64,000 bases of DNA, taken from the NCBI RefSeq assembly GCF_003334815.1, contig NZ_QOWO01000003.1; one strand, given 5' to 3'. The notes under the pieces are model-generated. The model did no database searches and had not been told where the DNA came from. It saw only the letters and a program-made list of their open reading frames with translations. Positions 18,838-48,900 of the stretch are shown piece by piece (position 1 is the first letter of the stretch; the number at the start of each line of letters is the position of its first letter). The DNA comes from Escherichia coli. Lineage in GTDB: Bacteria; Pseudomonadota; Gammaproteobacteria; Enterobacterales; Enterobacteriaceae. A program made the position numbers and the translations under genes.

Positions 18838-19335
18838 TGTGAATGCCTGATGCGACGCTTGCCGCGTCTTATCAGGCCTACGCCAGACAGCGCAATAGCC
18901 TGATTTAGCGTGATTTTGTAGGTCGGATAAGGCGTTTATGCCGCATCCGACATCAACGCCTGATGCGACGCTTAACGCGTCTTATCAGGCCTACGCCAGA
19001 CAGCGCAATAGCCTGATTTAGCGTGATTTTGTAGGTCGGATAAGGCGTTTACGCCGCATCCGACATCAACGCCTGATGCGACGCTTGCCGCGTCTTATCA
19101 GGCCTACGCCAGACAGCGCAATAGCCTGATTTAGCGTGATTTTGTAGGTCGGATAAGGCGTTTATGCCGCATCCGACATCAACGCCTGATGCGACGCTTA
19201 ACGCGTCTTATCAGGCCTACGCCAGACAGCGCAATAGCCTGATTTAGCGTGATTTTGTAGGTCGGATAAGGCGTTTACGCCGCATCCGACATCAATGCCT
19301 GATGCGACGCTTGCCGCGTCTTATCAGGCCTATCT
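18838..19335. repeat. Tandem array of about five 113-bp units, each containing paired REP palindromes
   Basis: GCCTGATGCGACGCTT(G/A)... recurs at about 18845, 18958, 19071, 19184 and 19297 (period 113 bp); units near-identical with a few substitutions. Confidence 0.85.
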
Positions 19336-25977: not shown

Positions 25978-27008
25978 TATTGCGGCTCAAGATTAGCGAC
26001 TGCCGAAGCGCCGATGCGGAACATTTCCGGGTCAGGTTTATCGACCATGATTTTGACCGGAAAACGCTGGGCAACGCGGACCCAGTTAATAGAACGAGAC
26101 ACTTTCGGCAGGCCGCCCAGCACCAGGCCGCCGTCATCCGGTAGCACGCCGTAGCCAATCGAATCCACTTTACCCTCGAAGGTTTTGCCGCTGTCACTCA
26201 TCAGGCGAATCGTTGCGGGTGTACCTGAGCGAATATTTTTCAGATCGGTTTCGCGGAAGTTGGCGATCACATACCAGTGACGAGTGTCGATTAGGGTAAA
26301 AATAGGGCGCATGGCAGAAGCAAATTGCCCGACGGAGGTTTTGAGGGAAATGACCCGGCCATCAAACGGCGCGCGAACGGTCGCCATTTCCAGATGCAGT
26401 TTGGTCAGGGCAATATCCGCTTCGACCGCCGCACGCTGGGCAACTAATGCATCCACGCCGCTGACGGCGCTGGCGGCTGACTGCGCCTGTAACAATACGG
26501 CATTAAGATCCGCTTCTGCGGCGCGCTGCGCCGTTCTTGCACGGTCAACATCTTCCGCTGAGACAAAACCTTCTTTCAGTAATGGCTCGGTGCGGCGTAA
26601 TGTATCTGTGGCCTGTTTCGCGGCGGCACGGGCTTTTTCTACCGTGGCATTAACCGAGTCGGCACCAAACTGTTGCGCGTCAACGCTACGCTGGGTGAGC
26701 ATAATTTGCTTATCCAGCGCCGCGAGGGAGGCTTCAGCTTTCGCCAGATTGGCTTCGTACGGGCGCGGGTCGATGCGGAACAGCAAATCGCCCTGTTTGA
26801 CTGCCTGGTTGTCGGTGACCGCCAGTTCTACAATGCGGCCGCTGACTTCCGGTACCACATCAATGGTATCTGCTGACGCGTAAGCGTCATTAGTTGATGG
26901 CGCACTGTCTACGCGCCAGATAACGAAAACAAGGGCAACCAGCGCCAACGCAACCACTAACAGAGCAGGGAATTTACTGCGAGGAGCTTTTTTCGGCGTA
27001 CTTTCCAT
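25977..27008 (-). CDS. mdtN: Membrane fusion (periplasmic adaptor) protein
   Basis: ORF track 343 aa; single N-terminal transmembrane helix plus coiled-coil. Confidence 0.9.
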   Translation of the reverse strand: MESTPKKAPRSKFPALLVVALALVALVFVIWRVDSAPSTNDAYASADTIDVVPEVSGRIVELAVTDNQAVKQGDLLFRIDPRPYEANLAKAEASLAALDKQIMLTQRSVDAQQFGADSVNATVEKARAAAKQATDTLRRTEPLLKEGFVSAEDVDRARTAQRAAEADLNAVLLQAQSAASAVSGVDALVAQRAAVEADIALTKLHLEMATVRAPFDGRVISLKTSVGQFASAMRPIFTLIDTRHWYVIANFRETDLKNIRSGTPATIRLMSDSGKTFEGKVDSIGYGVLPDDGGLVLGGLPKVSRSINWVRVAQRFPVKIMVDKPDPEMFRIGASAVANLEPQ

Positions 27009-27026
27009 GAGCGCGTCTCAAATAGA

Positions 27027-27302
27027 TTAGAAAAATGCCAGCCAGAACAGCATGGCGTAGAGAGCAAAAAGGGCGGTATAAATAATTCCGACAAATGCCA
27101 GATTGATATTTGCCCGCTGAATAACTCGCCTCGTGATGAGCGTCAAAATAAGGCTGGCAATGGCGCAGAAAAACCAGCTGGGATAATAAGCGCCGATCAC
27201 CGGGATTGCCGGAGATAATGAGCATCCCGAAACCATGAAGACGGGAATTATCCAGGCTGTTTTTTTGAGTTGCATCGCCATGCGAGAGAGAACTGTTGGC
27301 AT
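27027..27302 (-). CDS. ytcA: Small lipoprotein/membrane protein heading the mdtNOP operon
   Basis: ORF track 107 aa trimmed to MPTVLSRMAMQLKK... (91 aa); VSGC lipobox-like motif. Confidence 0.75.
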   Translation of the reverse strand: MPTVLSRMAMQLKKTAWIIPVFMVSGCSLSPAIPVIGAYYPSWFFCAIASLILTLITRRVIQRANINLAFVGIIYTALFALYAMLFWLAFF

Positions 27303-27510
27303 ATTAAATACATCCTGTCTGCTGCGAACAATATCTGTAGTGAATATCAATATCCATTGAAGGCGTCAGTATGGCTATTTTCTTGATGAATAAAAATAGC
27401 TTTATTCAGCCACCGCATTCATAACTTATATATTTTATTTATTAATTGGCTGTATATATTTTTAAAATAAATACTTTTGGGGGCTTCAGCGCCCACAAAA
27501 GCGAGTGACA

Positions 27511-29420
27511 TTAATTTGGGGTTACGATATTCACCCACAAATCGAAATTATCCAGACAGGCGATAATTTCTTCCAGTTTCGCGCCATTGCCAATAATTTT
27601 GGCTTTCTTCGCTTTTACCAGATCCGCCATTTTGGCTTGTCCGGTCAGCACGGCGTGCAGATCTTCACGGCTGATGTAGAAAGAGGCGTCGGCTTGCGGT
27701 TGCAGCGTTTTCCGGTAGTTAAGCACGCTATCGTTCAGCGTCAGGTTGAGGTTATCGCCGTTGCTCATATTGAAGTTCAGGCTGATATTTTTACCCGCAG
27801 CTTTCGCGCTATCGAGGCGAACGGCCATAAAGTCGAACAGCATTTCGACCGACATCCCGCGAATGGTGTCCGGGGAACCGGTGGTGCCGTGGCTGAACTT
27901 ATGCACCCCTTCGCGCAGCTCTTTCGCGCCGGTCAGGTAGAAACCGCGCCATGTGGCGGACTCGGCCTGATAGCCCAGCTGTTCAAAGTTATTCGCTTGC
28001 AGATTCTTCGCGACCTGGTCACCCGGGTTGGCGGCAATCACCTGTTTCAGCAGTTCTGCCGACCAGCGGTAATCACCTTGCTTGTTCGCTTCTTGCGCCA
28101 GGTTGATGACACGGGCAGAACCGCCCAGCGCCTGCACGTAACGTTTACCCATCTCCACCTGACCATACGGATGCAGGTTAGCCGGGTTACCGTCGTAATA
28201 GCCAAGATAGAAGTTATACACCGCGCGGGCGTTGTGGCTGACAGAACCGTAATAGCCGCGGCTGGCCCAGTTATTGGCAAGTGCAGGCGGCAGCTTAATC
28301 ATGTCGCCGATTTCATTCATGGTGTAGCCCTGGTTCGCCAGGTGTGCGGCATAAACAGCACTTCCGCGTCGTTACCCCACATATCCAGCGTTTCGTTCAG
28401 ATACTCGGTCCACTTGCTGGTGTCGCGGGTTTTCGCGCCGCGCAGAGTGTAGAAGTTGTGCAGGGTATGCGTGGCGTTCTCGGCGGTACACAGGGCTTTC
28501 AGGGCCGGAATATAGAAGTGCATTTCGGCTGGCGCTTCGCTACCTGGGGTCATCAGGAAGTCAAACTCCAGGCCGTCGATAATCATCTTCTCGCCAGTTC
28601 TGACGATAGTTTTCGTCGGTGCAATAATGCTCGGGTCGCCCGTTGCCAGCGTCACGCCAAGGCCATTACCCACATTGCCTTGCGCGTTGTGCGGCAGTAA
28701 CAGACCGTAAGAGTAGAGCGCACGGCGGCTCATGATGTTACCCGCCAGCACGTTTTCGCTGATGGCTTCGTCCATAAAGCCTGCAGGGGCAATCACCTGA
28801 ACTTTGCCGGATTTAACATCGGCTTCAGAGATAATGCCTTTCACGCCACCATAGTGGTCGGTGTGGCTGTGAGTGTAGATAACGGCAACAATCGGTTTTT
28901 GCGGACGATGCTGGAAGTAAAGGTCAAGTGCGGCTTTTGCGGCAGGCGGCGTCACCAGCGGGTCGATAACAATAATGCCTTTCTCGCCCTCAACGAACGT
29001 AATGTTAGAGATATCCTGGCCGCGCACCTGATACATTTTATCGGTGACTTTGAACAGGCCAGAAATACCGTTGATTTGCGACTGACGCCACAGGCTGGGG
29101 TTTACGGTTTCCGGCGCTGCGGCATTAATATCAAATTTGTAATCGTCCGCGCGGTAGTAAACTTTACCGTTCGCATCACGCAGAATACCTTCATCCAGCA
29201 GCGGGGCGATAAATCCACGCTGGGCATCGTCAAAATCCTGACGATCGCTAAACGGTAATGATTTGGCGTAATTCTGATTAACCTGTTGGGTATATTGAGT
29301 GGCGGCTTTCGCTTCCTCTTTCGCGTTAGCGGTATTTACCATCATGCCGCTGGCGGCAGTTAACGCAATAACAATCCTGCTCAAACGGAATAACCGAGAG
29401 TTATTCATATAAATCTCCAT
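27511..29420 (-). pseudogene. yjcS: SdsA1-like alkyl sulfatase (MBL fold plus SCP2 domain), disrupted by a frame shift
   Basis: ORF track splits it into 28317..29420 (367 aa, ends ...[16 protein letters not shown]) and 27511..28320 (continues ...[12 protein letters not shown]... in another frame); junction near 28335..28340. Confidence 0.7.
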
Positions 29421-29680
29421 TTATCATTTATGTCGTAAATATGTAATCCATGCAAAATACGTCATTTAAAGCTGGCGTTATCATAATTGGGAAATTGCGA
29501 CTTTAATAAGTGGAAGTGTGAGCGGAACGCGCCATTTTATTAGGCATTTGTGCTGAAGAGGGAAAATTACAGTAAAACTATCATTGCAGAAAATAATATG
29601 AGTCGTTTTATGTGTTTATTATATATATTGTACCTGTCGTTGGCACAGCGGGACATTGCGCTACTGTGCCAACGTTTTAC

Positions 29681-44507: not shown

Positions 44508-45233
44508 TCAGTGCTCCATAGTGAATTCAATCATGTCGGCGCGCGTCAGGCTGACGGAGTACTCCGCCGGGCTGCTTTCACCGTCACGGTGGTTAAGGGT
44601 GCGCACGCACAGCAGCGGCGACATATTCGGGATTTCAAGACGCTGGCACTCTTTGGCCTGGGCGCGGCGGGCGCTGATCCGCGTCTGGCTGCGGCGCAGC
44701 GCAATTCCGGTTTGCTCGCGCAGAAAATCGTGCAGCGAGCCGCTGTCGAAGCGTTGCAGCGTCGGCCAGAGGGTGAGGTCCGCGAAGTAGTGGTCGATTA
44801 AACAGAGCGCGACGCCGTTGACACGACGCAGGGTGCGCAGGTGGATGACGTTCTCCCCCTCGGTAATCCCCAGTGCGTCAGCGACGTGGCCGGACGCGGG
44901 GCGCAATACCGAAAGCAGTTTTTCGCTGGTGGGATGGCTGCCCTGATCCAGCAGATTCTGGCTAAAACGCGCCTGGGCGTTGAGCGGGTAATCGAACGGG
45001 CGCATCAGCACCAGCACGCCGACGCCCTGACGGCGCTGTACCCAGCCTTTTTCCACCAGTTGGTCGATGGCGCGGCGCAGGGTGTGGCGATTCACCTCAA
45101 AGCGCGCTGCCAGTTGCTGCTCGGCGGGAAGATAGTCGCCGCAGCGGTAGTGTTGACGAAGCTCCTGCTCAAGTTTTGCGGCTATCTCTTGATAGCGTGT
45201 TGGGTAGCTGGTCGGATGTGTAGACAAGTGCAT
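44508..45233 (-). CDS. phnF: PhnF, GntR-family repressor of the phn operon
   Basis: ORF track 244 aa; second in-frame Met (MHLSTHPTSYP) taken as start. Confidence 0.88.
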   Translation of the reverse strand: MHLSTHPTSYPTRYQEIAAKLEQELRQHYRCGDYLPAEQQLAARFEVNRHTLRRAIDQLVEKGWVQRRQGVGVLVLMRPFDYPLNAQARFSQNLLDQGSHPTSEKLLSVLRPASGHVADALGITEGENVIHLRTLRRVNGVALCLIDHYFADLTLWPTLQRFDSGSLHDFLREQTGIALRRSQTRISARRAQAKECQRLEIPNMSPLLCVRTLNHRDGESSPAEYSVSLTRADMIEFTMEH

Positions 45234-45253
45234 AGATATCAATGCCTCGCTTA

Positions 45254-46104
45254 TCAGATAAAGTGCTTACGCAACCGTTGAGAGAGGAAATCCAGCAGGC
45301 TGACCGTGACGATGATAAGCACCATCAGGGCGCAGGTTTGTTGGAACTGGAAACCGCGAATCGCTTCCCACAGGGTGACGCCGATCCCGCCTGCGCCGAC
45401 CATGCCGACGACGGTCGCCGAGCGGACGTTGGATTCGAAGCGATAGAGGGAGTAGGAGATCAGCAGTGGCATCACCTGTGGCAGCACGCCGTAGAGGATC
45501 TCTTCGAGCTTGTTGGCACCGGTGGCGCGAATGCCTTCCACCGGGCCGGGTTCAATCGCTTCCACCGCTTCGGAAAGCAGCTTGGAGAGCACGCCGGTGG
45601 TGTGGATAAACAGCGCCAGCACGCCAGCACGCCAGCGAACGGGCCGAGGCCGACGGCGACCACGAACAGCATGGCGAAGACCATTTCGTTAATGGCGCGG
45701 CAGGCGTCCATCAGGCGGCGAACGGGCTGGTAAACCCACCACGGCACCAGGTTTTCGGCGCTCATCAGGCCAAAGGGGATGGAGAGAACCACCGCCAGCG
45801 CGGTGCCCCAGACGGCGATTTGCAGCGTGACGGCCATTTCGGTGAGGTAATCCTGCCACTGGCTGAAATCGGGCGGGAAGAAGTCGGCGGCGAACGTCGC
45901 CATGTTGCCGCCGTCTTTGATCAGCGTAAGCGGGGCCATTTCCGCGCCCTGCCACGAGACGACCAACACGGCGAGTACAACGGCCCAGCTCAGAAGCGAG
46001 AACCAGCTGCGCTTGGGTGGGGCGATGGTGATGGTTTGCATGTTTGGCTCCGGTCTGTAGGCCGGATAAGGTGCTTGCACCGCATCCGGCATCAACGCCT
46101 GCAC
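45254..46104 (-). pseudogene. phnE: PhnE, phosphonate ABC transporter permease, frameshifted at an 8-bp repeat (K-12 cryptic allele)
   Basis: ORF track splits it into 45472..46104 and 45254..45622 in different frames; three tandem GCCAGCAC-type copies at about 45614..45637. Confidence 0.9.
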
Positions 46105-48552: not shown

Positions 48553-48616
48553 GATGGTGACCTCAGTTAAGAGAAGCCAGTTAAGTGTAGTTCGAAATTT
48601 ATACAGATGAGAGGCG

Positions 48617-48900
<284 letters not shown>

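Follow-up and report, generated by a model that had tools for sequence, protein, structure and literature searches.

A rare natural yjcS allele of Escherichia coli broken by the loss of 88 bp at a pair of 8-bp direct repeats

Two adjacent ORFs lie in different frames on the minus strand of a 64,000-nt stretch of Escherichia coli DNA (called the window here, meaning that stretch at its full length). They raise the question of whether we are looking at two genes or at the two halves of one broken gene and, in the latter case, whether the break belongs to the strain or to its sequence record. The original prediction, made from the sequence letters, was that yjcS, an alkyl sulfatase gene, had been split by a frameshifting loss of ~76 bp, corresponding to ~25 residues, or else that the window contained a sequence or assembly error.

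From the ORF listing, we reproduced the coordinates of both minus-strand ORFs, 28317..29420 (367 aa) and 27511..28320 (269 aa). The junction reads CAC ACC TGG CG AAC CAG GGC TAC ACC ATG A and, as had been proposed, the W357 codon is followed by exactly 2 nt before NQG opens the continuation in another frame. Both ORFs are 100% identical to two parts of one known gene, so the split is not a chance pattern of reading frames. The two ORFs are the halves of one gene, yjcS, the product of which is the periplasmic type III (metallo-β-lactamase fold) alkyl sulfatase of E. coli. Identity and synteny agree in this assignment: the DNA on both sides of the gap is 100% identical to yjcS and the neighbours are the same, the order alsK–yjcS–ytcA-mdtNOP keeping the K-12 context with alsK upstream and ytcA-mdtNOP downstream. 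In place of an uninterrupted frame of 661 codons, we observed a frame that shifts after codon 357, and therefore the locus is a yjcS pseudogene and not a functional member of the family.

Next, we determined how much of the gene is missing. Megablast searches with the region 27400-29600 located the locus in 5,360 of the 5,426 complete E. coli genomes, where it is annotated "yjcS: alkyl sulfatase YjcS"; the other 66 gave no match to the yjcS region at all. Among the matches listed that carried no IS insertion, the alignment was always in two pieces, covering 2,289 bp for a query of 2,201 bp. A shorter query of 201 bp spanning the junction likewise gave a two-piece match across 289 bp in 5,173 complete genomes. 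A base-by-base comparison with K-12 MG1655 (L001) showed that exactly 88 bp are absent from the window; the reference, to which the alignment called for in the original prediction was made, does not have the junction and carries these 88 extra bp. Strain 52F4 (L004) was identical to the window over 3,201 bp save for the same 88 bp. The lost segment corresponds to nt 1073-1160 of the yjcS CDS (codons 358-387) and starts in codon phase 1.

The frameshifting deletion in yjcS thus stands as predicted, being a clean 88-bp loss relative to both K-12 and 52F4 with 8 bp of microhomology at its junction, and the length given there for the intact K-12 protein, 661 aa, was right. The predicted size was too small. 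The true loss is 88 bp, that is 29 1/3 codons, with 30 codons (358-387) touched. The underestimate arose because the sum of the two ORFs counts MEIY, four extra N-terminal codons upstream of the annotated start at 29408, as well as the 6-codon frameshifted tail, and omits N388-T392; ORF 27511..28320 begins at the internal M393, not at N388. Apart from the gap, the allele in the window is identical to that of 52F4 and shows no secondary decay; therefore, the deletion is recent. Programmed frameshifting and a reversible phase-variation switch were also considered and were rejected, as 88 bp of coding sequence are physically absent and no repeat tract is left. The coordinates of the features are collected in Table 1.

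Table 1. Features of the yjcS locus in the window (positions are those of the whole stretch).
Feature	Position	Strand	Remarks
yjcS pseudogene, whole (K-12 start codon ATG, 29408; native stop, 27511)	27511..29408	-	1898 bp, compared with 1986 bp when intact; 100% identical to 52F4 except for the gap
5' part in the native frame, codons 1-357	28338..29408	-	Signal peptide, HSHTDH and most of Lactamase_B
Signal peptide (residues 1-29)	29322-29408	-	The PDB 4PDX construct begins at K30
HSHTDH zinc motif, residues 180-185	28854-28871	-	In the 5' part
Deletion junction, the one kept copy of CACCTGGC	28337..28344	-	Two copies in intact alleles
Frameshifted tail RTRATP and TGA stop	28317..28337	-	From the ORF listing and the raw sequence
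Stop/start overlap ATGA, ORF1 stop with ORF2 ATG	28317-28320	-	
3' part in the original frame, N388-N661 and stop; out of frame with the 5' part	27511..28335	-	Dimerisation and SCP-2-like domains
yjcS intrinsic terminator hairpin	27465..27502	-	SNP 27495 lies in the stem

We then looked for the junction elsewhere. A 44-mer across it occurred in none of the 5,426 complete E. coli genomes, and a 35-mer gave no match among the JGI metagenome contigs. In a collection of 15 billion proteins, we found the exact 363-aa product expected from this allele, with its RTRATP tail, as an E. coli protein (P0016, CAM9134690.1). This product was present on at least 12 contigs, drawn from ENA metagenome assemblies, from Logan assemblies of several runs and from an NCBI genome; one human gut metagenome was among the sources. 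The samples behind P0016 are ERZ19667149, ERR9716427, SRR29091898 with 2 sister samples, ERR14335422 and ERR2017699, and CAM9134690.1 belongs to the NCBI assembly. Five of the loci were fetched. In four of them (L005, L006, L008 and L009), the 44-nt junction matches that of the window exactly, and for L008 the identity with the window extends over 4.3 kb. The fifth, L007, lacks the same 88 bp, and its 44-mer carries one synonymous SNP.

As independent assemblers and projects agree, and as a repeat of 8 bp is too short to make a k-mer graph collapse, the deletion is real. We concluded that this is a real and rare allele, circulating at low frequency in natural E. coli. A lesion unique to one assembly is always suspect, and the absence of the junction from the complete genomes and the JGI contigs speaks for a sequencing or assembly artefact in a strain that truly has an intact yjcS; yet we give that reading almost no credence and regard the error proposed in the original prediction as effectively refuted, because the same junction and product recur on those contigs, which stem from various projects and samples and were assembled independently (the assemblers included Logan and, for the ENA metagenomes, MEGAHIT, and an NCBI genome is among the sources), because 8 bp is far below any assembler k-mer, and because the usual sequencing errors are homopolymer indels and not clean losses of 88 bp.

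What does the loss do to the protein? Since 88 is not a multiple of 3, the frame shifts after W357 and meets a stop 6 codons on, and the predicted product consists of residues 1-357 followed by RTRATP, 363 aa in all. In intact YjcS, Pfam places Lactamase_B at 130-355, Alkyl_sulf_dimr at 392-530 and Alkyl_sulf_C at 539-660. The metallo-β-lactamase (MBL) domain with its HxHxDH zinc motif, HSHTDH at residues 180-185, is kept in the first ORF. PF14863 and PF14864 no longer share a polypeptide with it, both lying wholly in the out-of-frame 3' part. The fragment thus retains the signal peptide and nearly the entire MBL domain, and the linker 358-387 is gone together with the dimerisation and SCP-2-like domains. 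In PSdsA, the stretch deleted here is conserved (WPVWGNKEV...LRLANKGYTM). An NCBIfam scan of the fragments and of the intact protein gave only weak, generic MBL matches, far below the cut-offs; NCBIfam has no dedicated YjcS model.

The enzymes of this family are obligately dimeric and draw on all three domains for it, and in SdsAP the MBL, dimerisation and SCP-2-like domains are all part of a large dimer interface (PMC5426288). YjcS is listed as SDS-active in a passage of PMC6107682 that cites Liang et al. 2014. Judged from its sequence, the window allele is predicted to have no SDS hydrolase activity; it would give an exported 363-aa fragment devoid of alkyl sulfatase activity, as a null allele does.

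It may be asked whether the split could nevertheless be functional, with both halves translated to form a two-piece enzyme or to serve as proteins of new roles. The stop of the first ORF and the start of the second overlap as ATGA, a weak AGGG Shine-Dalgarno sequence lies 7 nt upstream, and the allele persists in several samples. Against this, the 30 conserved residues 358-387, together with 388-392, are in neither piece. The 269-aa ORF has no signal peptide; if translated at all, its product would stay cytoplasmic, and so it could not complement the N-terminal fragment, which is exported to a different compartment. The missing residues 358-392 and the lack of a signal peptide on the C-terminal piece together make a two-piece enzyme implausible. 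The identity of the window with 52F4 moreover leaves no post-deletion change that would hint at adaptation, and the yjcS lesions of other carriers are plain null alleles. We consider a functional split to be highly improbable.

The ends of the deletion point to the way in which it was formed. In intact alleles, the octamer CACCTGGC occurs twice, at CDS 1065-1072 and 1153-1160, with 88 bp between the starts of the two copies, and in the window it occurs once. The endpoints therefore lie in a short direct repeat of which one copy was kept, as is expected of slippage or microhomology deletions. We estimated how often such an arrangement would arise by chance: in the homologous 65 kb of K-12, microhomology of at least 8 nt is expected in 1.4e-4 of random 88-bp deletions, and in 3.8e-4 over deletion lengths of 20-300 bp. 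On these sequence grounds, the repeat geometry is the classic signature of a slipped-strand (microhomology) deletion.

Inside the two repeats, there is also a 7-bp inverted repeat, GGTCTGG at CDS 1074-1080 and CCAGACC at 1143-1149. Its arms are 1 and 3 nt away from the CACCTGGC copies, and the stem is present in the centroid DNA fold. A stem of this kind at the base of an 80-nt segment was observed in 0.16% of shuffles and in 0.33% of natural windows; the stem was picked out post hoc, after the deletion had been seen. The single-strand DNA folding energy of the deleted segment with its flanks did not differ from that of shuffles on either strand (z -0.5 to +0.7). Because the overall folding energy is unremarkable, any help from a hairpin rests on the local 7-bp stem, and we regard the structural argument as suggestive. 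The gene has 16 direct-repeat pairs of at least 8 bp within 300 bp, some of them longer, and so the length of the repeat by itself does not explain why the CACCTGGC pair was used.

A potential hairpin bracketed by direct repeats is a textbook setting for slipped-strand deletion independent of RecA. The nascent strand would slip from one CACCTGGC copy to the other during replication, the hairpin probably drawing the two copies together, and one copy would be removed along with the 80 intervening bases. Taking the evidence as a whole, we are confident that yjcS in the window is a real, circulating allele, inactivated by an 88-bp deletion that would have formed by slippage between the CACCTGGC copies.

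The same deletion could have occurred more than once. The locus L007 (SRR29091898), whose contig was present in 3 samples, shows 21 differences from the window, clustered in the interval from 26777 to 28674. Many complete genomes (H92-H100) match its allele without a single mismatch, the two pieces of the match standing 88 bp apart. In an alignment of ten sequences, all 19 diagnostic bases, located within yjcS and shortly downstream, are common to L007 and the intact H9Ecoli allele (L012); at these sites, the window, L005, L006 and L008 carry the K-12/52F4 bases. The diagnostic SNPs nearest to the deletion are at CDS 1050, 22 nt upstream, and at CDS 1239, 79 nt downstream. The presence of the same deletion on an H9Ecoli-type allele indicates that it probably arose at least twice.

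A single origin, with the state of L007 produced by a short gene-conversion tract or by a chimeric contig, has more in its favour than the other alternatives. The allele is rare, and the flanks outside yjcS are identical in all carriers. Short conversion tracts are known to occur in E. coli. Moreover, L007 is a Logan contig, and the SNP at CDS 1239 is 79 nt from the junction, beyond the reach of a 31-mer. However, conversion would have had to be confined to the interval from CDS 1050 to 1239, at most 101 nt in the deleted allele, with all 19 SNPs otherwise of the H9Ecoli type. The SNP at CDS 1050 is 22 nt away from the deletion, so that single k-mers or reads join it to the junction, and the L007-type contig recurs in 3 samples. 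The K-12-type carriers are themselves not uniform: at position 27495, the window and L008 have T, and L005 and L006 have G, and both states occur in intact alleles (T in 52F4, G in K-12). We therefore consider a single origin unlikely, and from the pattern of SNPs we favour, with reasonable confidence, independent recurrence on two alleles over conversion. The split at 27495 among the carriers would fit a third origin or else a recombination or mutation that came later than the deletion.

Carrying recurrence further, the CACCTGGC pair and the 7-bp stem might constitute a deletion hotspot used in at least two and possibly three lineages, and the loss of yjcS might have been selected, for example in the gut, and not be a matter of neutral decay. 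We regard this extended proposal as a long shot on the sequences at hand.

The gene has also been lost in other ways. Several complete genomes (H2-H6 and H86-H91), including those of ET12567, LY180 and KO11FL, which are laboratory and industrial strains, have yjcS interrupted by insertions of IS1 (IS1A/IS1B), IS10-like (ISVsa5) or IS5-like (ISKpn26) elements, and the cluster of truncated proteins contains another frameshift allele (P0017). In L010 and L011, we observed a nonsense change at W357, TGG to TAG (CDS 1070 G>A), within the first CACCTGGC copy; the resulting product has 356 aa and ends in ...MPHT (P0018 and P0029), and the 269-aa downstream ORF is kept in a variant form (P0003). This stop allele is far commoner than the 88-bp deletion, with 244 index blocks against ~12 contigs. 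We tried P0003 as a marker of further carriers of the deletion and rejected it, as it accompanies the W357 stop. These alleles resemble that of the window in the loss of the two C-terminal domains, and the W357 TAG truncates the protein at the same codon as the deletion does; they differ from it in being point nonsense changes, a different frameshift or IS insertions instead of an 88-bp loss. Loss repeated by several routes suggests that yjcS is evidently dispensable in many lineages. As a separate observation, L010 also lacks the als operon upstream of yjcS.

We also compared the surroundings of the gene with other genomes. From soxS to melR, the window is collinear with K-12 MG1655 on the opposite strand and differs from it by ~14 scattered substitutions, a 1-bp indel and a repeat array that is 300 bp shorter. 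Natural isolates are closer than K-12, the best of them with ~2 differing sites in 25 kb as estimated from the bit score, and on account of this better match, we take the window to come from a wild K-12-like strain.

Several features of this background deserve mention in their own right. In the yjcS terminator, the minus strand has T at 27495 where K-12 has G, which makes a mismatch in the stem and changes the hairpin energy to -16.0 from -23.2 kcal/mol; the T is a natural polymorphism, present also in 52F4 with its intact yjcS. The phnE gene (45254-46104, minus strand) falls into two ORFs that overlap in different frames, just as it does in K-12 MG1655, for which RefSeq describes it as frameshifted. 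As it shows no indel relative to K-12 and a single SNP at 45551, the window shares the cryptic phnE allele of K-12 and phnE is a second pseudogene in the window. Between yjdM and yjdN, a REP-like tandem array (48616-48895) comprises 2.8 copies of a 100-bp unit, with several substitutions between units, and is shorter than that of MG1655 by 300 bp, or 3 units. Between yjcE and ghxP, at 2930, a run of T is 1 bp shorter than in MG1655 (T6 vs T7). A further tandem array, with a period of ~113 bp by self-matching blast, lies between yjcO and gltP (18845-19332) and has the same length as in K-12; in the reverse-complemented window, it occupies 44669-45156, and in the K-12 reference merge, 45246-45733.

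From these results, the two ORFs merit annotation as one yjcS pseudogene; public records list them as two "metallo-beta-lactamase superfamily" proteins. Strains that carry the allele are predicted to be without the YjcS alkyl sulfatase (SDS hydrolase) activity, and the 88-bp junction could act as a lineage marker in strain typing. The locus offers a tidy natural case of a repeat-mediated slippage deletion, and a probably recurrent one. Views of the enzyme family and of the formation of deletions are unchanged by it: a well-characterised, dispensable gene has met a well-understood class of mutation, and recurrence at one 8-bp repeat pair is the only mildly unusual element.

The allele may finally be set beside what is known of its relatives. 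K-12 YjcS (b4083; WP_001066019.1), to which both sides of the gap are identical in DNA, is intact and 100% identical to PDB 4PDX, whereas the window, without CDS 1073-1160, allows no full-length protein of 661 aa. The intact protein aligns end to end with SdsA1, PSdsA and Pisa1 (E 1e-182 to 1e-214), and it shares the architecture of MBL, dimerisation and SCP-2-like domains with SdsA1 of P. aeruginosa (2CFU), SdsAP/PSdsA (4NUR) and Pisa1 (2YHE). Unlike these enzymes, the window allele would give the MBL part only, with no linker.

For the deletion itself, the nearest comparison is with laboratory systems. Spontaneous deletions in lacI, studied by Farabaugh, Albertini and Miller, reportedly fall between short direct repeats and are ascribed to slipped mispairing, and Lovett and colleagues are said to have described deletion that is independent of RecA. 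The yjcS deletion resembles these slippage events in its 8-bp repeat endpoints, in the one copy kept, in its short span of 88 bp and in the inverted repeat at its base. It differs from them in being a natural allele, present in E. coli from the wild and from metagenomes and, as it appears, on two allelic backgrounds; the laboratory cases have a reporter, and for yjcS slippage is the probable mechanism read from the junction.
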